IMG/VR virus record: IMGVR_UViG_3300044611_001951
Coordinates: 1-52,937 of that record
DNA length: 52,937 nt
Source: a virus
Taxonomy: Duplodnaviria; Caudoviricetes
Reading direction: 5' to 3' (one strand)
A program made the translations under genes and the position numbers. Below the pieces are notes generated by a model. The model did not search any database, was not told the origin of the DNA, and saw only the letters and a program-made list of their open reading frames with translations. How positions within the stretch are numbered: position 1 is the first letter of the stretch; each line of letters starts with the position of its first letter. Shown here piece by piece: positions 3,983 to 52,937 of this stretch.

Positions 3983-6900
3983 ACACCGGCCTCCCGCCCG
4001 TGGTGACGAACAGAGACGCGCCGTACAGGCCCCAACTCGCCGGGTTGTCGTGCAGGCCCATTTCGTGGAAGAGGCTGATCGCCGGGTGCGATTCGATCAC
4101 TCCGTACTGCGCGCCGCCAGAGTCGAGCGTCTTGTGCCCCACGCCTTCGGGCGCCGCGAGCGCTAGGAACGTCGGGCTTGCGTCCGCGAGCGCCTCCGGC
4201 TGGAACCCCGAGGATGCGGCTCCGGCGCGAGCAGCGACGCGCGCAAGCAGCCCGCCGAGGCCATGCACGCGACCGTGCAAACGGTCAGGCCGAAGAACCT
4301 CGCCGCCGACGGCCCCGTCGGTGAATGTGCGCGCCGAGCGCGGCTCCGCGTAGGACGCCCGCGCGACGCCCAGCAGCACCGAGCAGCCCGTGATGGGCAC
4401 GACGTTCGCCAGGTCCAGCCACGATCCCGCGGCCGCGCCGTTCTCCGTCGCCAGCAGCCGCACCGACACCGGGCGCCCGTTGACGAAGCACAGCACGCCG
4501 CTCGAAATCCAGGAATTGGACTGCGCGCCGACCAGCGTGAATCGAACGTGGGTCCACTCGCCCGGCGTCAGCGCCGCAGCGCCGCGCGCGACGAACAGGC
4601 CGCCGTCGGGACGGTTCGTGCCGTCGAACGTCGCGGTCGATCCGATGGCGAGCTCCGGCGAGCCGTTCGCCAGGCGCAGCCACAGGTGAACCTTGTGCTG
4701 CCCGGCCGAGCCGCTCGCGTTGCGCATCGGGTTCGTCGACAGCGAGCCCACCCAGAGGATCGTCTGGAAGTCGGCCAGGCCGTCGAGCTTGACCCAGGCG
4801 TCGATCGAGAACTGCGTCCCCAACCGCGCCGAGGTGACCTCGAGCCCCGTCGCAGTATCGAAGCGCACGGCGTCGCCCTCGAGCGGAACGTAGGACCCCG
4901 ATTCGCGCACGCGCGTCGCGCGCATGTGCAGGCTGCGCTTGATCGTGTCGGTCGGTCCCTCGATGCGCCAGCGGTCGTCGGCGAGGTACAGAGCCCCGCG
5001 GGTCGCCGCGAACAGGTCGCCGCGGTGCGATCGCATCCCGAGCACCGGATTGCGCCGCGGAATCGAAGGAGCACGCCACCAGCGCGGCGCCGCGTCCAGC
5101 GCCACGACGGCGGGCGAATACGTGCGGATGCGCCACTCGGCGGCGCATGGCGCGATGTTGGCGAACACCTCGCGCGTGAGCGCCGCCTCGCTGGGAACCG
5201 TCACGCCGACCTCGAACGGGTCCGACATCGACGTCTGCACCGTGACGTGCGAGAGATCGTCCTCGAAGGCCGTGTAGCCGATGACTCGGAAGCTCGCCGC
5301 GGCTGCGTTCCGCATCGTCGGGCCGTCAAAGGGCCGCGAGAGCGTGATGCTCGATCCCGACGCCGAGGGCGCGTAGTAGAACTCGTCCAGCACCAGCGGG
5401 GCCGTGTCGTCTTGCCGCACTTCCAGCGTGTCGCGCGAGACGCGCAACAGCGTTTCAGCTACAGCCTCGAGCGTGTCCTCCGGCTGGCCGGCGAAGAACG
5501 CCAGGCCATCCGCCGACGTCACCGTCGCCGAGTCACGCGTCACGTTCACGCCCGGCGCCGAAGGCCCCAGCGGGCGCAGCAGGTCGGCCCGCGTGAGCTT
5601 CCCAGGAGGCAGCGCGCGGCCGCCGGTCAGCTTCCCCGTCCCGGCAGCCGTCACGCCGCCGCTCGCAGCAGGCAGCGCCCCAGGAGCCGCCACGCCGAAC
5701 ACCCGCACGTCCTCGACGATCAGGCGCGCGCTCAGCTCGTCGGCTCGCAGCGAATCCGGGCGCCACGCGCCGCCGATGGTCACGACCGAGCGCAGCAGGT
5801 CGCGCTTGGGGATCGTCAGCGTCGAGAAGTAGGCGAACTCGGCCCCAGCGGGATCACCAGCCGCCGGGCTCAGCACGCTCTTGGGCGTCGCCGCCAGATA
5901 GACGCGGTACTCGTTCGCGTTGCCCGTCGACTGCACGCCGATCTGGATGCGGATGCGCTCGCCGACCCACTCGGCCGTGGTCGAGAAGTTCGCCACCGGC
6001 CCGGTCGACCAAGGCTCGACCGCCACTGCCACCGAGCCCGTCTCGTTGTCGAGCGTGGTGTCGACCTCGAGCGTGAAGCCCTGCGGGAAGAAGAACGGAT
6101 CGGAGCCAAGCGCGAAGTCCACCACGCTCGCGTTCCACAGCCGCAACATGGGACGCGCCGCCACGTCCAGCCCCGTGTTGTCCTCGCGCAATTCCCACGA
6201 GGCCAGGACCGGCGCCCCCTGCGTTCGGCGCTGCGTCGAGCCCACAGGCACCTCGCGCCCGTAGTACGCCTGCGGGATCACGCACGAGAACTCGATGGCG
6301 AACCCCGACGAGCCGGAGCGGAACATTTCGGTCAGCTCGCGCCGGAGAACGCTGTCGTCCTCCATGTCCAGCGTCAGCGCCTCGCCCTCGCCGCTCAGGA
6401 ACAGCTTGCCCGCGCCGCGCCCGAGCGTGTACGGCGCGAGGAACGCCGTGTTCCCCAGCACGAGCTCGCGCAGCGCCGCGCCGCCCGCGTCGTCCAGCGG
6501 CCACGCGCCCACGAGGCTCGACACGTCCTGCTCGGCCAGGTCGTCCGGCAGCGAGTACGACGCCAGCGAGAAGCGCGCCCGCGCCGTCGTCAGGTCGCGC
6601 GCCGTCGTCCAGATGCGGAAGCTCGAGAGCCGCAGCGGGCGCTGATGCCAGCGGAACACGATCACAAAGAACGGCGACGACGTGAATCCCGTGACCGCCG
6701 AGAAGTTGTCGGCGCGGTTCAGCCGGAAGTTGCCCGCGACCTCGGTGTAAGTGCCGATGCGGATGCGCCCGCCGCGGACACTCGCCGGCGTCGCGCCGCT
6801 CTGGTTTCCCCACAGTGCCGCCCAGCAGTTGCGCAGCGCCTCGCTCGTGTTCGCCACAGCCTGACCCGGCACAGCGCCCGTCCCCGTGTTGAACAGGCCC

Positions 6901-10078: not shown

Positions 10079-10081
10079 TCT

Positions 10082-10609
10082 TCACTTTCCTCGTGCGATT
10101 CCACGCAGGCCCAAATCCGTGACTGCTTCGTTTCGCTCGCGCAAGGCGTCCTGAGCGGCAGCGCCGCCCATCTCCATCCGGCGCATGATCGTCGGCATCC
10201 GGCGCCGCGCCCACTGGAGGTATGCCTGCATCTTCCGCGCGATCTCGTAGCGCGTGACGATGGCGGCCTTCGCGCGCTTGCTCGCGCCCTCGGCTTCGAG
10301 GTTCGCCGCGAACTCGCGCAGCCCCACGCTCGAGCGCTGGAGGTCGACCTCGCGGAGCTTCTGGATCAGCGGCTCGGCCGTGAACGGCAGCGGCCGGTAG
10401 ACCGGCGCGTTCCACGGGCCGTCGCACCAGAAGAACACATGCGACCAGCGGCCGCTGCGGCGAAGGTGCTCCTGCACCTCCCAGACGGAGCGGCGCGTGT
10501 TGAACACGCAGCGCAGCCGCGAGTCGAAGTCTCGCAGCCCGTCTTGGATGTTCTTGGGGCACGTCGGCACTTCACCGACGCGCCCCACGCTCACAACGGC
10601 GTCGCTCAC
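10082..10609 (-). CDS. Hypothetical protein (175 aa)
   Basis: GTG overlapping the upstream stop (GTGA). Reads LRDFDSRLRCVFN…WEVQE…LREVDL. Confidence 0.7.
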   Translation of the reverse strand: MSDAVVSVGRVGEVPTCPKNIQDGLRDFDSRLRCVFNTRRSVWEVQEHLRRSGRWSHVFFWCDGPWNAPVYRPLPFTAEPLIQKLREVDLQRSSVGLREFAANLEAEGASKRAKAAIVTRYEIARKMQAYLQWARRRMPTIMRRMEMGGAAAQDALRERNEAVTDLGLRGIARGK

Positions 10610-11901
10610 ATGCGCTCCGCGTTTTCGCCGTCCTCGTAGATCAGGCGGGCACGCTCCCACGACGCGCGCGGGCGCAGCACCTCGATCGCCTCGCCGCTGA
10701 CGAAGTTGCCGCCAGTGCCGAGCGCCGCCAACACAACAACGCCCATGCCGGTCGAGTCGGCCGTGAAATCCACGGCGCCGCCGCCGACGGTGCGCTCGAT
10801 CTGAATGTTGTTCGCGTCCACAGCCAGGGCGAAGTAGATCGCAGACGTGGACAGCGCGGTGCCCGAAACGGTCGGGAGCGCCTGCAAGACACTGCCGACG
10901 TTTGCGGGTTGCAGCAAGAGCGGCGTTCCAGCCGCGATGCCGTGATTGGTCAAGCCCACCCGATCGGTGCTGGCCGTGGCCGTGGCCGTGCGCGCCGTCG
11001 CGTCCGCCGCAAGGCGGAAGCTGTTGGCGTCGACTCCGGGCTGCACGTAGTAGTTCGTGTTCAGCGAAAGCCCGGTCGGCAGGCCGTTGTCCAGCGGCCG
11101 CACTCGCACCACGTCGCCCTTGCGCAGCCCGTGCGCGGTGAGGGCTACAGACCGATCCGCGGTCGTGCTCGTGACCGCGCAGGCGCCGAGCGACACGTCG
11201 AAGTTGCGCGCGCGGCCCGGAATGGCCATCCATCCAGCGGCGTTGTCGAACTGGAAGGACGCCTGCGTAGTGCCCTGCACGGCCGCCTCCCCGGTGTCGG
11301 GGAAAAACAGCGCGCGAACCTGACTCGGCAGATTGGGGCGCATCGGCGCCAACATCCGCGACGCCTGCAAGGGCGCCTCGCCGAGCAGCGCGATCCCCGT
11401 GCCGACCCCGATCTGGAGGGCGTTGAGCGTCCCCCAGGTGCCCGTCTTGGTCCCGTGGCTGATGGACGTGATGCGGTCGTAGAAGCGCGAAGTGCGGACG
11501 TGCGAAAGCTGGATGCCGTTCGGCTGCAACAGCGTGCCGATGTTGATGGTCAACGTCTCCACCTGCGGGCTGCCGTTGAGGAAGCCGCTGACCGTAATCG
11601 GGAGCGCGTTGGTCGAGCCGGAAATGTTGGGCGTCGCCTGGACGGCCCCAGGCTTTCCGGTGGGCGACGTGCGGTTGTTCTCCAGAACGATGCTGATTTG
11701 CTGCGGCCACGGCAGCACTTGGCCGCGAGCGACAAAATCAGGGTTCAGCGTCAGATTGCCGTTCGCCGTGTTGCTCGCCAGCGCTTGGAAGAGGCAAATG
11801 TGCTGCGGGTCGCCAGGCGGGCACCAAACGTCCGTCCCGTAGTGGAATTGGCGGCCGAGAAGGCTGGCGGGGTGCAGGTTTTTGAGGCGGATGCCGGACA
11901 T
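10606..11901 (-). CDS. Virion structural/decoration protein with two HG(L/I)..G…LPT…T.YYV…DAN repeats
   Basis: 431 aa directly after the capsid gene. Two internal repeats: AHGLRKGD…LPTGLSLNTNYYV…VDANSF and NHGIAAGT…LPTVSG…IYFALAVDANNI. Confidence 0.7.
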   Translation of the reverse strand: MSGIRLKNLHPASLLGRQFHYGTDVWCPPGDPQHICLFQALASNTANGNLTLNPDFVARGQVLPWPQQISIVLENNRTSPTGKPGAVQATPNISGSTNALPITVSGFLNGSPQVETLTINIGTLLQPNGIQLSHVRTSRFYDRITSISHGTKTGTWGTLNALQIGVGTGIALLGEAPLQASRMLAPMRPNLPSQVRALFFPDTGEAAVQGTTQASFQFDNAAGWMAIPGRARNFDVSLGACAVTSTTADRSVALTAHGLRKGDVVRVRPLDNGLPTGLSLNTNYYVQPGVDANSFRLAADATARTATATASTDRVGLTNHGIAAGTPLLLQPANVGSVLQALPTVSGTALSTSAIYFALAVDANNIQIERTVGGGAVDFTADSTGMGVVVLAALGTGGNFVSGEAIEVLRPRASWERARLIYEDGENAERM

Positions 11902-11938: not shown

Positions 11939-11986
11939 CGCGGGGCTTGGATGGGCGTGCCGGTTGCCCCGCGGCTCCGGCACGCC
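11939..11986 (-). ncRNA. Predicted H-type RNA pseudoknot downstream of the capsid gene
   Basis: Stem 1 GGCGUGCCGG/CCGGCACGCC (10 bp). Loop CGCGGGGC pairs with downstream GCCCCGCG (8 bp). Linker CAUCCAA. Confidence 0.6.
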
Positions 11987-12013: not shown

Positions 12014-13528
12014 TCAGCTCTCCTCGATGTCCATGATTCGGACGCCGCAACGATCGCGGACGCCCACGCCCAGCGTGCACTCTTCGACCGTGCGCGCCTG
12101 GTAGCGGTCCATGTCCTGGAGGTACTGCCAGATGTTGGCGCCCTGCTCCGAAGCCCACGAGAGCGGCTCCGTGACCCAGTTCTGGAACCCGCCCTGCTCG
12201 AGCGACAACCCGTGGATGTTGTTCTTCGGGTGCAGGCGGTCGACCAGCCACGGGATGCCGCCGGGGCCGACCATCGTGCGGTCCCAGCCACCGGGCAGGT
12301 TCACCGTGTTCACGAAGCGCTTCTCGCCCGTGAGCTGCGCGCTGTACACGCGCTTCGGTGCGTAGCTCGAGAGCCACACCTGGATCTCGGCGCTGTTGCG
12401 CTCCTCCACCTCGTCGATGATCTGCATGAGCAGGTTCTCGGTCGGGGTGCGCAGCGAGCCGCTGTTGTGGTTGACGACGCCCTGGTTGAAGGCGAGCTCG
12501 CTGTTCCAGCCGGCCGCGGCCGACGTGCACGCGAGGCCCTGGAAGTAGTTGCCGGTCGTGCTGGTGCGGTCGTCGGTGCCGCCCCACTGCCACGCGCCGT
12601 TGTCCGTGCCTTCGATGCCGCCGCCGGCGAAGTCAGCGCCGACTTCCGCAGCGCGGCCGTTGCCGTCGAGCGGGCCGCCGTAGCCGAGGATGCCCAAGAG
12701 GCCCTGCGGCTCGGCGCGGAACGCCGAGTTCTGGACCATCTGCGCGTTGCTCGAGTTGTCGGTCGAGCCGGTCTTGACGACCCAATCGCCGATCACGATG
12801 GTCGAGAGATCGGTGACGCCGGACGCGCCCGCCAGGAACTCAAACGTGGCCTGCGAGGAGTCGTCGACCGACGTGATGTTGCAGATCGCCTTGGGCACGC
12901 CAGCGCCCGTCAGGACGAGCACGCGCATACCCGCGGTGAGCCACTTGGTCGGCGCTTCGTTCGCCATGCCGGTTGCGCTGGCGCCAGGCGCGTTCAGGCC
13001 CGTGCCGATGTCCTGGTTGATGCGCAGCGTGAACTGCTGCGAGCCCGCGGCCGATCCGGCCTCGGCGATCTCGCACAGGCGGCCCGAGCCGTCGCTGTAG
13101 AGCATCCGCGCGCGGTCGAGCTCGTAGTCGTCGAGGAACTGCTGGATCTCCAGCGCCATCGGCTCGACGTCGCCCGCGCCGTTCGACATGGCGCGCACGA
13201 GCTTGCCGTCGAGGATGAAGCGGCCGAACTGCTGGCGCGAGCGGTAGGCGTACCACGCCATGCGCCGCTGGCCCGGATCGGGGAACTTGCCGTTGTCGCC
13301 GACCGCGTTGAACGCGCGCGGGTTGCGACCGTACATCGCGCGTTCGCGGACGTGGCGGCCCCCGACGTACTTCGTGTTCTCGGGGATCAGGGAGAGGATG
13401 CGCGCGTTGTTGTTGCGCGTGTCGTGCAGCACGTTGCTCACGAAGTCGTGAGTCAGGTAGTGCAGGAACGGGAATTGGCTCGAGGACGAGCCGAAGCCCA
13501 AGCCCAGGTTTGCGTCGGTGGCTGCCAT
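12014..13528 (-). CDS. Major capsid protein (HK97-fold, with insertion domain)
   Basis: 504 aa following portal and scaffold. Segments G.F.LDG…A…E…RMLYSDGSG, EPQGLLGI and GIPWLVDR..P match my recollection of podoviral capsid proteins. Confidence 0.85.
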   Translation of the reverse strand: MAATDANLGLGFGSSSSQFPFLHYLTHDFVSNVLHDTRNNNARILSLIPENTKYVGGRHVRERAMYGRNPRAFNAVGDNGKFPDPGQRRMAWYAYRSRQQFGRFILDGKLVRAMSNGAGDVEPMALEIQQFLDDYELDRARMLYSDGSGRLCEIAEAGSAAGSQQFTLRINQDIGTGLNAPGASATGMANEAPTKWLTAGMRVLVLTGAGVPKAICNITSVDDSSQATFEFLAGASGVTDLSTIVIGDWVVKTGSTDNSSNAQMVQNSAFRAEPQGLLGILGYGGPLDGNGRAAEVGADFAGGGIEGTDNGAWQWGGTDDRTSTTGNYFQGLACTSAAAGWNSELAFNQGVVNHNSGSLRTPTENLLMQIIDEVEERNSAEIQVWLSSYAPKRVYSAQLTGEKRFVNTVNLPGGWDRTMVGPGGIPWLVDRLHPKNNIHGLSLEQGGFQNWVTEPLSWASEQGANIWQYLQDMDRYQARTVEECTLGVGVRDRCGVRIMDIEES

Positions 13529-13577
13529 GTGAGTTGAAGGTGGTTGGGGCAGCCACCGACGTTAGACCGGGGGCCGC

Positions 13578-29241: not shown

Positions 29242-29618
29242 CGACCACCGAACAACGCGACTCCGTTCGCGTCTACGCATTGTGCTGCCTGATCCGCCGC
29301 GCCGACGGCTCAGTCGATGAAGTGATTGGCGCGCTGGCTGGATTCCAAGAGCGTGAGGCTCGCGGCGTCGCCAGCGTCACGCCCGAGTACGCACGCCGGA
29401 TGCTTGCCACCGACGAGAAGCGCGACGAGCAGACTCTCTACTACGGCGTGTGCGAAGTGGATCTGTTCGAGCCGACGCCGGAATCTCCCAGGCTCGAGAT
29501 CGCCTCGCTCCGCGAGCCCTTCGGCCGCGCCCCGCTCGACGTGCTGGCGCACAACCTCGACAAGATCCCCGCACCTTGGCGCGAGTTCACGCTGCGCCGC
29601 ATTGAGACCTCGAACTGA
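29238..29618 (+). CDS. Hypothetical protein (126 aa)
   Basis: Coupled ORF with GGAG upstream. Confidence 0.6.
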   Translation: MTTTEQRDSVRVYALCCLIRRADGSVDEVIGALAGFQEREARGVASVTPEYARRMLATDEKRDEQTLYYGVCEVDLFEPTPESPRLEIASLREPFGRAPLDVLAHNLDKIPAPWREFTLRRIETSN

Positions 29619-29619
29619 C

Positions 29620-30576
29620 ATGACGCTGCAAATCTTCAGCACCACCGCAGAGTGGCTCGCTGCGCGCAAGCACTCAATCGGCGCTTCGGAGTCTCCCGCG
29701 CTGATGGGCGCTAACCCGTGGCGCGGATCGTTCGCTGTGTACGCCGGCAAGGTCGGCGAGCACGAAGAGGAAGAGACGAGCAAGATGCGCGCGGGCCAAG
29801 TGTTCGAGCGCGCCATCGCCGAGTTCTACGCCATCGAGCGCGATCTCCAGTTGCTCACTCCGCTGGATCGTGCGCGGCGAGACGATCCCGAGCTTGAGGC
29901 TGCGCCCTACGAGGCGCGCGTGATGTGGCGGGCTCCTGGCTCGGTGCTGGCGTGTACGCCCGACTTCTTCGTCAGCGATGGCGCAGAGGGCGAGTGGCCC
30001 GTCGAAGTGAAGCGCGTGGACCCGGACCAATCCCCGAAGTGGAAGGAAGGCCCGCCGCTGTACTACGTGCTCCAGGTGCAACACCAGCTCGGCGTGCTGC
30101 GCGCGTGCGGTATGCAGTACGACGAGGCTGTGCTTGTTGCGGACTTCGGGGGCGATGACGTGCGGCCGTACTACATCCGCTTCGACGCCGAACTGTGGGA
30201 GCTGATCGTTCGGACGTGCGAGTCGTTCTGGCTCGAGCACGTCGGACCGAAGAACCCGCCGGCGGTCGATCACCTGACGACGCCGGAGGACGTTGGCCGA
30301 CTCTACAAGCGCGCCGTTGTCGGCTCGACGGTCGAAGTACCTCTCACGCTGCTTGCGCGCTACCGCGACCTCAAGGCGCAGGAAAAGGCGCTGAGTGAAG
30401 CGCTGGAGCAAGCCCAGGCTGCGCTCAAGGCCGCCATCGGCGAGCACGAAGGCGCGACAGTCGGCGGCGTGCTGTGCGCAACGTGGAAGGAGCGCGTCGC
30501 CAACATTCCGGCGAAGGCCGCCACGGTATCGAAGTCTCGCCCGCTGCTGCTGACGAAGGCGGCGCAGGGCGTCTAA
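29620..30576 (+). CDS. YqaJ-like (lambda-exonuclease family) recombination nuclease
   Basis: EWLAARKHSIGASE…MG.NPW, G..FE..IA, ACTPD, VEVK, YY.LQVQHQL. Confidence 0.92.
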   Translation: MTLQIFSTTAEWLAARKHSIGASESPALMGANPWRGSFAVYAGKVGEHEEEETSKMRAGQVFERAIAEFYAIERDLQLLTPLDRARRDDPELEAAPYEARVMWRAPGSVLACTPDFFVSDGAEGEWPVEVKRVDPDQSPKWKEGPPLYYVLQVQHQLGVLRACGMQYDEAVLVADFGGDDVRPYYIRFDAELWELIVRTCESFWLEHVGPKNPPAVDHLTTPEDVGRLYKRAVVGSTVEVPLTLLARYRDLKAQEKALSEALEQAQAALKAAIGEHEGATVGGVLCATWKERVANIPAKAATVSKSRPLLLTKAAQGV

Positions 30577-30615
30577 CCACCAACCCACCACCACGACACG
30601 AACGAGAATCTCCCG

Positions 30616-31824
30616 ATGGAACAGACCGACAAGATCCAGACCCAACAGGCGCAGGCCCCGCGCGTGGACCTGAGCATGATGGGCTTGCAGCCGACGACCT
30701 TCGACCAGCTTTGGGCGGCGTCGCAGGCGCTCGCCAAGAGCGACGTTGTGCCCGTCGCGTACCGCGGCAAGCCCCACAACGTCCTGGCGGTCGGGATGCG
30801 CGGCGCCGAGATGGGCGTCTCGTTGCTCGTGGCGCTCGGCGAAATGCACGTCATCGACGGCAAGGTCGGGATGAGCGCGGACCTGCTCGTTGCGCGAGTG
30901 CGCGCTTCGGGGAAATGCTCCTACTTCAAGCTGCTCCAGGTCACGGACGAGATCGCCAAGTACGAGGGCAAGCGCTCGGACACGGGCGAAGTCCAGGCGA
31001 TGGACTACACGCTCGCCGAGGCGCAGGCCGCGGGGCTGCTCGGCAAACAGAACTGGAAGGGCAACCGGCGCGCGATGCTGATGGCCCGCGCTTCGGCCCG
31101 CTTGGCGCGCGAGCTCTGGCCGGACGTGTGCGTCGGCCTGTACGTCCGCGACGAGCTCGACGAGATCCGCTCGCAGACGCCCGACGCCGCCGTGCAGGCG
31201 ACCTCGCGCCCGACGACGATCGACGCCGTGAAGGCGCAGGCCCGTGAACGCCTTGGGATCGCTCAGGCTGCGTCTGCGCCGCAGGCGACCTCCGAGCCGC
31301 GTCAGGCAGAGATCGTGCAAGGCGCGCAGGCGCAGGCGTTCCCGCCGCCGCCGGACGACCACGAGGACGCCGAGGCGTTCTTCGGCGACGCGCCGCGCAA
31401 CGAGGAGCCGGATGGCTCCAACGCTGGAGACCTGCCGGATCAGGAGCCGCGCACGCCGGCGCATCCGCTGGTGAGCCCGGCGAACTGGTACGCGCCCGAC
31501 ATGGGCGGCGTGGACGTGAACGACGGCAGCGAGCTCGAGCTTCGCCTTCCCGCGCGCATCGACAACTTCGGCGCGCTGATGCACGAAAACGTCTGGAGTT
31601 CGGGACCGCTCAAGGCGTGGACTCCGGCTCAGGCGCTCCAGGGCGGCGAAGGCGGCGGGCGCCACACTCTGCTGCGCAAGGCCGTGGACTTCGCCGTCTC
31701 CAAGCGCTTCGAGCCTCACCTGATCCCGCGCGGCGCGCTGGTCGCCGACTGGTGCCTCGCGCTGCTCGAGCGGCGCTACGCGCTGATGCGCGCGGCCGGC
31801 CTCGCCACGAGCGACGAAGCCTAG
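30616..31824 (+). CDS. recT: RecT/Redbeta-family single-strand annealing protein
   Basis: SDVVP.AYRGKP…G.EMG…MHVIDGK, A..AGL..K.NW…ML.ARA…WPDV..GLY..DE. Adjacent to the YqaJ nuclease. Confidence 0.85.
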   Translation: MEQTDKIQTQQAQAPRVDLSMMGLQPTTFDQLWAASQALAKSDVVPVAYRGKPHNVLAVGMRGAEMGVSLLVALGEMHVIDGKVGMSADLLVARVRASGKCSYFKLLQVTDEIAKYEGKRSDTGEVQAMDYTLAEAQAAGLLGKQNWKGNRRAMLMARASARLARELWPDVCVGLYVRDELDEIRSQTPDAAVQATSRPTTIDAVKAQARERLGIAQAASAPQATSEPRQAEIVQGAQAQAFPPPPDDHEDAEAFFGDAPRNEEPDGSNAGDLPDQEPRTPAHPLVSPANWYAPDMGGVDVNDGSELELRLPARIDNFGALMHENVWSSGPLKAWTPAQALQGGEGGGRHTLLRKAVDFAVSKRFEPHLIPRGALVADWCLALLERRYALMRAAGLATSDEA

Positions 31825-31848
31825 CCACGACAACTACACCCGCGACAA

Positions 31849-31907
31849 CCCCGGAGCACGGGTTGGCTCGCGCTGCTGCTCCGGGGGTCATCCATGCAGC
31901 GCGGGCC
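31849..31907 (+). ncRNA. Predicted H-type RNA pseudoknot downstream of recT
   Basis: Stem 1 CCCCGGAGCA/UGCUCCGGGG (10 bp). Stem 2 GGCUCGCGCUGC/GCAGCGCGGGCC (12 bp, one G-U). Linker GUCAUCCAU. Confidence 0.65.
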
Positions 31908-31947
31908 GCTACCTGTCACAAATCAACACCAACCCGAGGGACATGAC

Positions 31948-33120
31948 ATGAACGGGCACGAAAAGAAACTGCGGGAGGCGTGGGCCGGAGCGAGCGAGAC
32001 GGCGCGTAACTGGTTCGCTGTGGTGGACGAAGGCCGCAACATCTACGGCATTTGCTCCGCAGTCCGCGCCTTCTGCGAGAGCGAGCCGAGCGCCGCCGTG
32101 CTGGTTGCGGGCGACGGCACCTTGTGGGCCGACGATCGCCGCATAACCGCTGCCGCCCCCGCCGTGGTCGAGCCCGAGGCGCTGCGCAAGGTGCGGGAGG
32201 CGTGGGCTGGCCACAGCGCGAAGGCTAAGGCAAGGGCGCTGCGGGGCTTCCGGGGTGCCAGCGGCTACAGGCCGAGCGACGAGCTTTTCCGCGCCCTCGC
32301 CGACCTCCTCGAAAGCGCGCCGGTGGAGGGGGGCGAGACACAGCGCGCCCTGTTCGCCGACTTGCAACGTGCGTTGGTCGCCGAAGATGAGCGCGACAAG
32401 CTGCGCGCCAAGCTCGCCGCCGCCGAGAAGGAGCGGGACGAGGCGCGAAGCGAAACGAACATCATGCGGACGCAGCTTCGCGATCAGTCCGATATGTGCA
32501 ACAAGGCAGCGTCCAGGCGCGACTATCTGCGCGATTGCTTGCAGCGAGCCGAGAACGCCCGCGACGAGGCAATCTCGCACATCGCTCAGTTCCAAGATAT
32601 TGCCCGTCAGCGCGACGCGGCCAAGCGCGAGGCGGAAGCGATGCGCGCGGAGCAGGGCGGAATGCGTGCGATGGCGGACGCTTCCAACCGCAGCTACAAG
32701 GCGCAGCTCGCCGACCTGCAACGCGCGCTGACCGAGGAGAAGAAGGCGCACAACGAGGCGCTGGCCCGCGCCTGGCTCGCCGCGCCGCTGTCCGCGCCCG
32801 ACGCGCCCGACGAGTACACGCGCGCTGCGGTGGAGTTCGCGGAGGCGTCGGTTGACGATCGCGTTAGCTACTCGAACTTCGAGCCGATCGAGGATGCGTG
32901 GAAAGCGCTCTACGATGCCCGCCAACGCGGCGAGCCGAGCGCGCCCGTGTCCTCGCCGCCGCCCGCGCGCGTGCTGGAGTGCTGGGTCTTGCAATATCAC
33001 GGCGCTTCGGCGCGCATTGTCATTGGCGACATTGAGGCCGCGCGCAAGATCGGAACGCACGCTGAATGCTTCCACCGCGTCGCCCTGCCGGTCATCGAGA
33101 CCGTGGAGCGTGGGGCGTGA
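31948..33120 (+). CDS. Hypothetical coiled-coil protein with internal repeats (390 aa)
   Basis: K(L/V)REAWAG x2, ADLQRAL x2, ERD-type heptads. Confidence 0.7.
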   Translation: MNGHEKKLREAWAGASETARNWFAVVDEGRNIYGICSAVRAFCESEPSAAVLVAGDGTLWADDRRITAAAPAVVEPEALRKVREAWAGHSAKAKARALRGFRGASGYRPSDELFRALADLLESAPVEGGETQRALFADLQRALVAEDERDKLRAKLAAAEKERDEARSETNIMRTQLRDQSDMCNKAASRRDYLRDCLQRAENARDEAISHIAQFQDIARQRDAAKREAEAMRAEQGGMRAMADASNRSYKAQLADLQRALTEEKKAHNEALARAWLAAPLSAPDAPDEYTRAAVEFAEASVDDRVSYSNFEPIEDAWKALYDARQRGEPSAPVSSPPPARVLECWVLQYHGASARIVIGDIEAARKIGTHAECFHRVALPVIETVERGA

Positions 33121-33368
33121 GCAAGCACAACGACGGCGGCGCGGCGTATCCGAGCGACGCGCACACTGGATGGACCGACGCGGGAGTGCCTATCCGCACG
33201 CCATGCGACCGTGGCCTCACCAAGCGCGAGCTGTTCGCGGCGATGGCGATGCAGGGGATGCTGGGCAACGCAAATTGCACCTTTGGCGATGCGGCCCGGT
33301 GCGCGTCCGAAGCGACGAGGATCGCCGACGCCCTACTCGCCGAGCTTGCGCGCGAGGTGTCCCAATGA
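33117..33368 (+). CDS. Small conserved-type phage protein
   Basis: DGG.AYP…GLTKRELFAAMAMQG…ADALLAEL, a motif I recognise from common phage hypothetical proteins. Confidence 0.75.
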   Translation: MSKHNDGGAAYPSDAHTGWTDAGVPIRTPCDRGLTKRELFAAMAMQGMLGNANCTFGDAARCASEATRIADALLAELAREVSQ

Positions 33369-33688
33369 CCGCGTGGACTAGCGAGCCGCCGCGCGAGGGG
33401 GCGTTCATCGCAAACCCCATCATCGGCACCATCACCGTCGCCGCTCCGTTCGAGCGCGATGGGCGACGCTACGACGCGACCGTCACGTTCGACTTGCACG
33501 CGGACGGCCAGCGCTCGTTGCGCAAGCAGGACGTCACGAGCGGAGTCTACATCGTCAACGACCAAGACTTCGAGGAGGACGCCTACGCGCTCATGCACAA
33601 GTGGAACACGCGCGAGCTTGAGATCGAGGTCGAGCAGTTGAAGGCGGAACTTCGCGCCGTGCGTGCGATGGAGGCGAGCCGTGGCTAG
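33365..33688 (+). CDS. Hypothetical protein (107 aa)
   Basis: ATGA overlap, GAGG upstream. Confidence 0.6.
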   Translation: MTAWTSEPPREGAFIANPIIGTITVAAPFERDGRRYDATVTFDLHADGQRSLRKQDVTSGVYIVNDQDFEEDAYALMHKWNTRELEIEVEQLKAELRAVRAMEASRG

Positions 33689-34300: not shown

Positions 34301-34770
34301 GCACCGAACTGGACCTGGGCGCGCTGCGGGCGCATGCACACGAGTTGCGCGACTGGTACTTCGACATCGACGAGGGCGACGACTCGATCTACGCGACCAA
34401 CAGCGGTCCGCACGATCACCCGCTCGCAGAGATGCGCCGCAAGCCGAAAGAGGCCGTGTGCGCTGCGCTCAACGCCTTCCCCGCCCTCCTCGCCGCCGCC
34501 GGCGAGCGGGATGCGCTGGCGTCTGTCCGCGATGCGCAAATCAACGTGATCGAAATCGTGCGCGCCGATCTCGAACGCACGCTCGCCCAGACCGCCGCGC
34601 TCCAGGCCGAGGTCGAGCGGCTGCGGGCGGTGCTAATGCGCGCTGGCAGCACGCTCGATTACATCAACGACCCCCATGCGCTCAGCCCCAGCGACTCCAA
34701 TCGCGTCGATGACTCGCTGCGCGTGATCCGCGCCGCCCTCGCCCCCGCCGCAGCGAAGGAGGTGCGGTGA
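34297..34770 (+). CDS. Hypothetical protein (ead/Ea22-like pattern)
   Basis: LDL.ALRA…W…AALNA.PALL…AEVERLR. Confidence 0.65.
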   Translation: MSTELDLGALRAHAHELRDWYFDIDEGDDSIYATNSGPHDHPLAEMRRKPKEAVCAALNAFPALLAAAGERDALASVRDAQINVIEIVRADLERTLAQTAALQAEVERLRAVLMRAGSTLDYINDPHALSPSDSNRVDDSLRVIRAALAPAAAKEVR

Positions 34771-35444: not shown

Positions 35445-35602
35445 GCAGGCGAGCCATCCTGTCGCGCTGGCGTGGCGCCACACTGCACCCGCCCTACTCG
35501 CCATTGCGTCGCCCGCAGTGGGTCGGCGACCTTGGACTCACCCGCGCCTCGATCAATAAAAGGCGACGGCACGCGAAGAAACACGGGAGGAAATCATGTT
35601 GA
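35441..35602 (+). CDS. Small basic hypothetical protein (53 aa)
   Basis: GTGA overlap, fills the gap in a coupled gene array. Confidence 0.45.
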   Translation: MSRRAILSRWRGATLHPPYSPLRRPQWVGDLGLTRASINKRRRHAKKHGRKSC

Positions 35603-40140: not shown

Positions 40141-40416
40141 ATGGCAAAGCGTGGATGCGCGAAGGGCAGTTCCAGAGACAGCTCTGGAGACTGCCGCAAC
40201 TACAAGAAAGAGACCGCCTACGCCGCTCGCCCGGAGCAGGTGAAGAACCGCGTCGAGCGCAACCGCGCGCGGCGTGAGGCCGGGCTCAAGGTCGGCGATC
40301 CTCGGGAGGTCGACCACATCAAGCCGCTGGCGCAGGGCGGCTCGCACGACAAGAGCAACCGGCGCGTCACGTCGCGCGCGTTCAACCGCAAGCGTGCAGC
40401 GCAGGCGCGCGGCTAG
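40141..40416 (+). CDS. Small HNH endonuclease-like protein
   Basis: RNYKKE…RNRARR…EVDHIKPLAQGGS…N.R…FNR, AGGAG upstream. Confidence 0.85.
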   Translation: MAKRGCAKGSSRDSSGDCRNYKKETAYAARPEQVKNRVERNRARREAGLKVGDPREVDHIKPLAQGGSHDKSNRRVTSRAFNRKRAAQARG

Positions 40417-52804: not shown

Positions 52805-52928
52805 AAGGTCCATCTGGCCCTGCGCCATCTGGCCGCGCGCACCAGCGGCGAGCCCGCCAAGCTGCCCCGCGAACTGCATGTTCGCCTGCGGCGTGAAACG
52901 CCCGATGGCCGCCGCCGGGTTCACGCCG
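52805..52928. repeat. Terminal direct repeat, copy 2
   Basis: Identical to 1-124. Confidence 0.95.
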
Positions 52929-52937
52929 CAGGCGAAC

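Follow-up and report, generated by a model that had tools for sequence, protein, structure and literature searches.

A candidate conserved RNA pseudoknot between recT and the following gene of a high-GC freshwater phage

Introduction

What could be the role of two long, interleaved inverted repeats that lie between two genes of a phage recombination operon? This question is raised by IMG/VR record IMGVR_UViG_3300044611_001951, a sequence of 52,937 bp with a GC content of 68% from a virus of the Caudoviricetes, in which such an arrangement (31849-31907, plus strand; the recT element) follows the gene of a RecT-like single-stranded DNA (ssDNA)-annealing protein. The window analyzed here is the whole IMG/VR record, and the public runs that contain its sequence carry the label lake water. 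An earlier reading of the letters alone (the sequence-only reading) had proposed that the recT element is a conserved, pseudoknotted RNA. It had further proposed that a second element downstream of the capsid gene (11939-11986, minus strand; the capsid element) belongs to the same family, which would be marked by a CAUCCA linker. Our analysis suggests that the recT element is probably a genuine and uncommon candidate for a conserved RNA structure, backed by compensatory changes in one relative, and that it probably folds as a pseudoknot.

Architecture of the recT element

The recT element is composed of a stem of 10 bp (S1) and a stem of 12 bp (S2). Its four strands follow each other without overlap in the order S1-5′, S2-5′, S1-3′ and S2-3′, which is the order of an H-type pseudoknot. 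The following features were delimited:

31825-31848, plus strand: spacer of 24 nt from the recT stop codon to S1, C/A-rich, with an ACACCCG that is also found near the downstream ribosome-binding site
31849-31858, plus strand: S1 5′ strand, CCCCGGAGCA (inverted repeat), pairing with 31877-31886 over 10 bp with 100% complementarity
31859-31864, plus strand: loop 1, CGGGUU, 6 nt, invariant in the relative described below, with ACCCG at 31932-31936 as an alternative partner
31865-31876, plus strand: S2 5′ strand, GGCUCGCGCUGC (inverted repeat), pairing with 31896-31907 over 12 bp including one U-G
31877-31886, plus strand: S1 3′ strand, UGCUCCGGGG (inverted-repeat finder, alignment)
31887-31895, plus strand: loop 3 (linker), GUCAUCCAU, 9 nt, which reads GUUGUUCAUCUU in the relative
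31896-31907, plus strand: S2 3′ strand, GCAGCGCGGGCC (inverted-repeat finder, alignment)

The S2 5′ strand lies in the 18-nt loop of S1 and is separated from the S1 3′ strand by 0 nt. Since no strand overlaps another, the two stems are not sequence-exclusive. Both the sequence and an inverted-repeat finder agree with the layout that had been proposed for this locus, namely a distance of 24 nt from the stop codon, stems of 10 and 12 bp, a junction of 0 nt and a CAUCCA linker, and the sense orientation of both elements within their operons was likewise confirmed from the sequence. On its 3′ side, the recT element is followed after 40 nt by the AUG of the next gene, with a Shine-Dalgarno sequence in between.

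Conservation in a related phage

A single related lineage was found, represented by a complete IMG/VR genome of 50,940 bp with terminal repeats. This genome can be aligned collinearly to the window in mosaic blocks with a DNA identity of about 69-88%. The RecT proteins of the two phages are 56% identical by tblastn and 60% identical in a pairwise alignment, and the genome block that contains the recT element is 68.8% identical at the DNA level. The relative carries the element at the same place, directly 3′ of the recT stop codon, and with the same strand order. When the pseudoknot was imposed on the pairwise alignment (22 pairs), 97.7% of the cells were paired, compared to 37-50% in six slid registers. 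Five pairs, four of them in S1 and one in S2, had changed on both sides, as against 0-1 in the slid registers.

In S1, the 5′ strand is CCCCGGAGCA in the window, compared to GGCUAGGGC in the relative, and the aligned pairs are all kept (9/9). Four of the ten S1 pairs have changed on both sides and one on one side, the replacements from window to relative being C-G to G-C (twice), C-G to U-A, G-C to A-U and A-U to G-U. Of the 12 S2 pairs, 10 are invariant, one shows a double change from U-A to G-C, and the relative has lost one. Loop 1 together with the adjoining S2 strand (GCACGGGUUGGCUCGCGC, 18 nt) is identical in the relative, and so is the S2 3′ strand with its 3′ flank (GCGCGGGCCGCU). Wobble pairs are present in S2 of both phages (U-G) and in S1 of the relative (G-U), and on the opposite strand these would be A-C or C-A mismatches. 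Because the wobbles fit the plus strand only, the molecule under selection would be the sense RNA or, less likely, plus-strand ssDNA.

The comparative evidence comes from two sequences and is strong for S1 and thin for S2. The claim of a conserved RNA structure, as put forward in the sequence-only reading, is supported for the recT element as a candidate, as compensatory changes affect both stems in one homolog; the capsid element shows no informative variation. In contigs of four public DNA runs over 31500-32200, 0 letters differ at the recT element, and no RNA run is listed for this stretch.

In the relative, the recT element is bracketed by a perfect 10-nt direct repeat, ACACCCGAGC, at 4192-4201 and 4290-4299 with a spacing of 98 nt. 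The second copy of ACACCCGAGC runs up to the start codon, and the copies in the window have decayed to 7/10. This repeat could be a scar left by duplication when the element was inserted, or it could pair with loop 1. The early region, otherwise about 70% identical to the relative or unalignable, also contains islands of 97-100% identity (32403-32447, 33367-33403, 34728-34761 and 35562-35592, plus strand). At least the island at 32403-32447 lies inside a called gene, and the one at 35562-35592 ends in GGGAGGAA just 5′ of an ATG.

Comparison with shuffled sequence and folding energies

Both strands of the window were scanned for compact H-type arrangements, defined as perfect helices of at least 7 bp with G-U pairs allowed and with loops of up to 10, 4 and 15 nt, and the score was taken as the sum of the stacking energies. 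The recT element ranks first (-48.3) and the capsid element second (-40.9), followed by an unrelated locus at -32.7. A test against shuffled sequence speaks for the recT element, whose score was reached in 0 of 59 dinucleotide shuffles of the whole window, and not for the capsid element, whose score was reached in 7 of 59. Compared to the shuffles, the recT element is clearly unusual, whereas the capsid element is not unusual genome-wide, although both elements lie, sense-oriented, in the few non-coding spacers.

A crude pseudoknot energy was calculated from the stacks, a penalty of 9.6 kcal/mol and 0.1 per unpaired nucleotide. The pseudoknot of the recT element obtained -43.9 in the window, compared to -32.5 for the best nested fold, and -34.8 compared to -23.5 in the relative. 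In all three elements, the crude energy favors the pseudoknot by about 8-11 kcal/mol. In the fold that we infer, S1 and S2 of the recT element would be formed simultaneously.

The capsid element and the proposed CAUCCA family

The second element of the sequence-only reading, with its 10-bp S1 and its CAUCCA, is indeed present in the sequence. It has the following parts:

11939-11986, minus strand: capsid-downstream element (sequence, inverted-repeat finder, compact H-type scan)
11986-11977 with 11963-11954, minus strand: S1, 10 bp (inverted-repeat finder)
11973-11966 with 11946-11939, minus strand: S2, only 8 bp (inverted-repeat finder)
11953-11947, minus strand: linker CAUCCAA (the loops measure 3, 2 and 7 nt)

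The energy of nested folding of the capsid spacer is not unusual (z -2.33). The spacer differs between the relative and the window by 3 substitutions in about 115 nt, none of which falls in a stem, and two more IMG/VR contigs are identical to the relative at this place. As many 60-nt stretches in the capsid neighborhood are 100% identical to the relative, the conservation of the capsid spacer says nothing on structure.

The idea of one family with a CAUCCA linker finds no support. The linker of the recT element of the relative, GUUGUUCAUCUU, contains CAUCUU, and only UCAUC is common to both phages. A covariance model of the recT element was built from its two sequences and run against 155,027 bases, resulting in 17 matches at E ≤10. 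It recovered only its two training copies, with 93.6 and 92.3 bits, and missed the capsid copy, which speaks against a relationship between the two copies in the window. Because the relative has CAUCUU and the covariance model misses the capsid copy, we treat the recT and capsid elements as analogous at most and not as one family.

By chance alone, a CAUCCA in both elements of the window would be rare. The 105,874 strand positions of the window contain CATCCA 27 times, compared to 14.9 expected, and 0 of 100 shuffles reach 27. This excess is attributed to codon structure as a candidate cause. A general rule of a hairpin followed by CAUC was discarded: hairpins of at least 9 bp with CATC within 8 nt are found at 23 places in the window and at 22 in the relative, many of them inside genes.

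A search with the capsid protein brought up further relatives with 87, 64 and 42-57% identity. With an alignment of 17 capsid proteins, four distant capsid loci were reached (34-45% identity; two of the loci are identical). At these loci, a strong plain hairpin of 11-12 bp with a loop of 4-5 nt is located 10-24 nt after the capsid stop codon; between it and the next gene lie a G-poor spacer and a Shine-Dalgarno site. Neither an interleaved second helix nor CAUCCA was seen at the four loci. Strong GC hairpins 3′ of the capsid gene are present in three further distinct lineages (four loci, two identical). Because the relatives have plain hairpins at this place, S1 of the capsid element would be the local version of a widespread post-capsid hairpin. 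We conclude that the capsid element is not a homolog of the recT element and that it probably does the same kind of job as the post-capsid hairpin of its relatives. Its 8-bp loop pairing and the common CAUCCA may be coincidence.

A different hairpin of 14-15 bp is located at the other end of the capsid gene (13512-13562, minus strand). Its 3′ strand consists of the first capsid codons AUG GCA GCC ACC GAC G, and its loop is a 21-nt leader, CCAACCACCUUCAACUCACAU, without obvious Shine-Dalgarno sequence. In the relative, 13 of 14 pairs are kept despite a divergence of the loop that includes indels, and the hairpin may control the translation of the capsid gene.

Searches for further homologs

The statement of the sequence-only reading that the recT element belongs to no known Rfam family agrees with our search of the whole window with the Rfam 15 covariance models, which gave 0 matches at the gathering score. 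At E ≤10, the sole match in 31750-32000 was the F6 small RNA (sRNA) on the opposite strand, with 19.6 bits as compared with a cut-off of 46. A blastn search of phage GenBank with 30577-33120 gave no match.

In IMG/VR, the RecT protein retrieved the one relative, and the alignment of the two RecT sequences retrieved five loci, of which four are distant (29-42% identity). The 390-aa protein encoded downstream of the recT element retrieved two loci, one of them in the same relative. Three stretches contain the exact 17-mer of loop 1 and S2, one of which is the known relative; the other two were read as chance matches, as no such pairing is found around them. The pattern of the S2 arms matched at least 117 stretches, and all 117 were scored for a flanking S1 and the top 25 inspected. 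Among the matches listed, only the known relative has loop 1 and the context in common, and nine other listed matches with a flanking helix of at least 9 bp were judged to be unrelated. In the JGI metagenomes, 5 of the 186 stretches obtained with the RecT alignment are relatives, all with 29-35% identity, while the GTDB genomes yielded 0 of 34 stretches with the RecT alignment and 0 of 87 with the capsid alignment.

Going by titles and abstract openings, none of the articles listed on phage intergenic or intercistronic pseudoknots or on metagenomic structured RNAs deals with an element of this kind after recT. Conserved pseudoknots with long stems between the cistrons of DNA phages are hardly documented. 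According to a review, the pseudoknot of T4 gene 32 is possibly the only viral example of a pseudoknot in translational autoregulation (PMC3014915).

Gene neighborhood

The two elements are flanked by the following genes and leader:

29326-30576, plus strand: YqaJ-type exonuclease gene (PF09588, E 1.6e-15, Pfam)
30616-31824, plus strand: gene of the RecT-like ssDNA-annealing protein, 402 aa (phrog_561, E 1.3e-36), with the stop codon TAG at 31822-31824
31908-31947, plus strand: leader of the 390-aa gene, 40 nt, G-poor and C/A-rich, with the Shine-Dalgarno sequence GAGGGA at 31936-31941 (sequence)
31948-33120, plus strand: gene 3′ of the recT element, encoding 390 aa that look coiled-coil-like by eye (translation)
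12014-13528, minus strand: major head (capsid) protein gene (phrog_14242, E 1.2e-18), 79% identical in the relative

No Pfam match was obtained for the RecT-like or the capsid protein. The portal and the large terminase were also recognized in the window, few of whose genes have family matches, and it contains no tRNA genes and no recognized gene of a phage RNA polymerase. The 390-aa protein belongs to no Pfam or PHROG family, and in the ESM Atlas it corresponds only to unnamed phage clusters below 0.9; nothing in these three resources points to an ssDNA-binding protein (SSB).

The true start of the 390-aa gene is most likely ATG 31948, because the Shine-Dalgarno sequence GAGGGA lies 6 nt upstream and AUGAAC is kept in the relative, and because the frame that begins at ATG 31894 has poor third-position GC (GC3) and lacks conservation. 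With this start, the recT element would lie inside a non-coding spacer of 123 nt. The alternative start ATG 31894, located in the linker, was rejected: the linker of the relative has no AUG, and the common nucleotides are in different codon phases. An antisense open reading frame (ORF) from the complement of CAUCCA was also rejected, as it stops after three codons in the relative. The stretch GGGGGUCAUCCAUG at 31883-31896 (plus strand), which is embedded in the S1 3′ strand and the linker, resembles a Shine-Dalgarno sequence with an AUG in the frame of the 390-aa gene. It is likely unused as a start site, because it is absent from the relative.

At the leader and start of the downstream gene, the relative retains AUGAAC and ACCCGAG; neither ACCCGAG nor CACCCGMG is enriched as a motif. 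The leader between the YqaJ-type gene and recT (30572-30599, plus strand), UCUAACCACCAACCCACCACCACGACAC, is the sole plus-strand stretch of 28 nt in the window with at most one G, and strongly G-depleted, C/A-rich leaders seem to be the means by which this phage keeps its initiation regions unstructured.

Positions 1-124 of the window are repeated at 52806-52928, and both ends map to adjacent, overlapping places in the relative. Because of this end repeat and the adjacent mapping, the record would be a circular or terminally redundant assembly, which may be complete rather than 73% complete as estimated by CheckV. An 18-bp hairpin at 52880-52937 is created by the last 9 nt of the record and looks like an assembly artefact. 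At the junction of the convergent plus- and minus-strand gene blocks, a small ORF (40141-40416, plus strand) looks like an HNH endonuclease by eye (...DHIKPLAQGGSHDKSN...). The gene at 10079-10605 (minus strand), which was missed by a filter on GC3, starts at or near the stop codon of the gene at 10606-11901. A strong hairpin at 10555-10587 (minus strand) was discarded as an intergenic element since it lies inside this gene; it is conserved, has 15 bp within coding sequence, and is followed by CAUCCAAG.

Discussion

We tentatively propose that the recT element is a lineage-specific, selectively maintained, cis-acting intercistronic structure that may act as an mRNA decay barrier or as an attenuator, which we regard as quite possible. 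The element would be located in the sense transcript of the exonuclease-recT operon, in which S1 (10 bp) and S2 (12 bp) would stack end to end and give rise to a quasi-continuous helix of roughly 22 bp. Such a very stable roadblock could shield the upstream exo-recT message from 3′-to-5′ exonucleases after cleavage or termination, and/or it could serve as a U-tract-independent attenuator of read-through into the downstream genes. A barrier or attenuator of this kind would uncouple the levels of the recombination genes from that of the next gene, which would be served by its own unstructured C/A-rich leader and its Shine-Dalgarno sequence, 40 nt further on. We favor this role because it accounts for the position, the orientation and the stability of the element as well as for the parallel with the post-capsid hairpins.

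In the regions scanned, terminators consisting of a hairpin and a U-tract were not above chance (4, 8 and 6 found, compared to 6.0, 9.7 and 8.0 expected), and structures of the present kind are therefore the only visible candidates for transcript 3′-end elements in this phage. A canonical intrinsic terminator was rejected for both elements, neither of which is reported by consensus scans; the loops measure 13-19 nt. The tail after S1 of the capsid element reads CAUCCAAG.

Several observations weigh against a structured barrier or attenuator. The element has been found in no more than two independent lineages, a single compensatory pair carries the case for S2, and the relative has lost one of the S2 pairs. 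A shuffle control on the alignment gave 17/500, a control that has little power with two sequences. Nested folding of the recT spacer is no better than that of shuffles (z -0.55), and the spacer of the relative gave a z score of 0.08. Loop 1 has only 6 nt to span the 12 bp of S2, which is tight but feasible by general pseudoknot geometry; loop 3 has 9 nt over 10 bp. No comparable element is present 3′ of recT at nine distant RecT loci, one of which ends at a contig end, and the best compact scores anywhere in these loci range from -8.6 to -27.0. The tails that follow S1 and S2 of the recT element (GUCAUCCAU and GCUACCUGUC, respectively) are not U-rich, and decay protection or termination would require no more than a simple hairpin. 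Finally, as loop 1 and S2 are near-invariant, an additional sequence-specific partner is suggested, which a barrier leaves unexplained.

Near-invariance of loop 1 and S2 combined with drift in S1 is the pattern of a recognition site, and it would fit a translational operator or riboregulator of the downstream gene, either as a protein-binding pseudoknot or as a switch that pairs with the ribosome-binding region. In both phages, a G-poor leader lies between the end of the pseudoknot and the AUG 40 nt downstream; however, G-poor, C/A-rich leaders are generic in this phage, as seen for the leader of recT itself, and also follow the post-capsid hairpins of the relatives, and the downstream protein carries neither a family assignment nor any mark of an SSB. 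The nested consensus obtained with RNAalifold pairs CGGGU of loop 1 with ACCCG beside the Shine-Dalgarno sequence in both phages, thereby extending S2, but this pairing is without any variation between the phages. A further perfect pairing in the window joins CGGGUUGG to CCAACCCG at 31929-31936. Complementarity is also seen between the S1 5′ strand and the initiation region of the same phage (-10.3 and -12.9 kcal/mol), compared to -4.6 and -5.9 when the phages are swapped. Shuffled initiation regions, however, reach the observed complementarity in 90/2000 and 60/2000 cases, which makes it only 3-5% unusual in each phage, and it was found post hoc among several pairings tried. We take these post hoc pairings as weak hints of a switch and consider control of the downstream gene by the recT element unlikely. 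A similarly low probability is assigned to the view that no pseudoknot forms. S1 would then be a conserved hairpin of the ordinary intercistronic type, and the S2 arms would be kept for other reasons, for example as a binding site with inverted repeats at the DNA level, as a recombination boundary or as a hairpin alternative to S1. Such a view is consistent with the 10 of 12 S2 pairs that never vary and thus allow almost no covariation test, with nested predictions that prefer S2 as a plain hairpin (with six more pairs in the window only), with mosaic genomes that contain short islands of 88-100% identity in the early region, and with the plain hairpins found after the capsid genes of the relatives. 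It does not easily explain why one S2 pair changed from U-A to G-C on both sides and why the conserved U-G wobble is strand-specific. Moreover, the conserved blocks are broken by the variable S1 3′ strand and linker, unlike a recombination patch, the combined arrangement of S1 and S2 was reached in none of the 59 shuffles, and S1 and S2, which have no strand positions in common, are not sequence-exclusive alternatives.

A processing element, that is, a self-cleaving ribozyme, an RNase site or a small RNA released from the operon transcript, appears quite improbable. RNase III could act on the stacked helix of roughly 22 bp, and RNase E or P in the single-stranded linker. The compact, conserved pseudoknotted form with its invariant unpaired loop 1 and the UCAUC in loop 3 would be compatible with processing, as would the intercistronic position, which resembles that of the RNase III sites of T7. 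However, no Rfam ribozyme or sRNA matched at the gathering score on the whole window, and there is no room for the extra helices of hepatitis delta virus (HDV)-like ribozymes, as the S2 5′ strand directly adjoins the S1 3′ strand. Stimulation of stop codon read-through or frameshifting, which would join RecT and the downstream protein in one fusion, is extremely improbable as the role of the element. No further stop codon interrupts the spacer of the window between the recT TAG and the downstream gene, which is in the same frame, but in the relative the downstream gene is in another frame (recT ends at 4182 and the next start is at 4301). There is also no slippery heptamer before S1, the element starts as far as 24 nt after the stop codon, and the GC3 of the spacer in that frame is low (9/17 codons). 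As the frame relation is not conserved, read-through is excluded. That recT and the next gene share a frame that is interrupted by a single TAG (31822-33120) is probably a coincidence in a high-GC genome.

Stabilizing hairpins and terminators follow highly expressed phage genes, as exemplified by the terminator after the T7 capsid gene. Like these, the elements of the window and the post-capsid hairpins of the relatives are placed right after a stop codon in sense orientation and are very GC-rich and stable; unlike them, both elements of the window lack a U-tract, and the recT element has a second, interleaved conserved helix. The exonuclease-resistant RNAs (xrRNAs) of flaviviruses and plant viruses are compact pseudoknotted folds with a ring-like three-way junction that block the 5′-to-3′ exonuclease Xrn1. 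The recT element would resemble them as a compact pseudoknotted fold in a viral sense RNA with a proposed exonuclease block, both predicted for the recT element, but it has no three-way junction and no sequence similarity to them. We know of no bacterial or phage example of an xrRNA.

The closest architectural counterpart is the gene 32 operator of T4, T2 and RB69. In the T4 operator, a pseudoknot lies 67 nt upstream of the initiation codon, and an unstructured A+U-rich stretch overlaps the ribosome-binding site (PMC3014915). Like this operator, the recT element is predicted to be an H-type pseudoknot with coaxially stacked stems in a phage mRNA leader; it is located tens of nucleotides upstream of a start codon and is followed by a putatively unstructured stretch up to the ribosome-binding site. 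Both also lie in a neighborhood of DNA recombination or replication genes. In contrast, the stems of the recT element (10 and 12 bp) are far longer, its leader is C/A-rich and not A+U-rich, and the gene downstream of it has no recognizable family and no mark of ssDNA binding. There is no sequence similarity, and the likeness is architectural only. No Rfam model of the T4 gene 32 element exists (PMC10690425). The candidate structured RNAs of the DNAVirus_N set, which were derived from IMG/VR, are likewise conserved intergenic structures in uncultivated phages. Whereas that catalogue required at least three unique IMG/VR 3.0 regions per motif (PMC10690425), the recT element was found in only two IMG/VR lineages.

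The recT element is accordingly best viewed as a well-supported candidate from two lineages and not as a characterized system. In a more far-reaching interpretation, which we consider improbable, it would be the founder of a new class of phage intercistronic pseudoknots, either as the bacterial counterpart of viral exonuclease-resistant RNAs or as a three-state riboregulator, with the capsid element as a convergent second member and with a functional single-stranded CAUC(C) linker. If it were a three-state riboregulator, the S1 5′ strand and loop 1 would toggle between the pseudoknot and the ribosome-binding region, and RecT or another phage protein would possibly read the element. If the recT element acts as a decay barrier, an attenuator or a switch, it would show how an uncultivated freshwater phage of high GC content, lacking canonical terminators, adjusts the relative expression of its recombination module, and it would represent a compact, portable RNA insulator.

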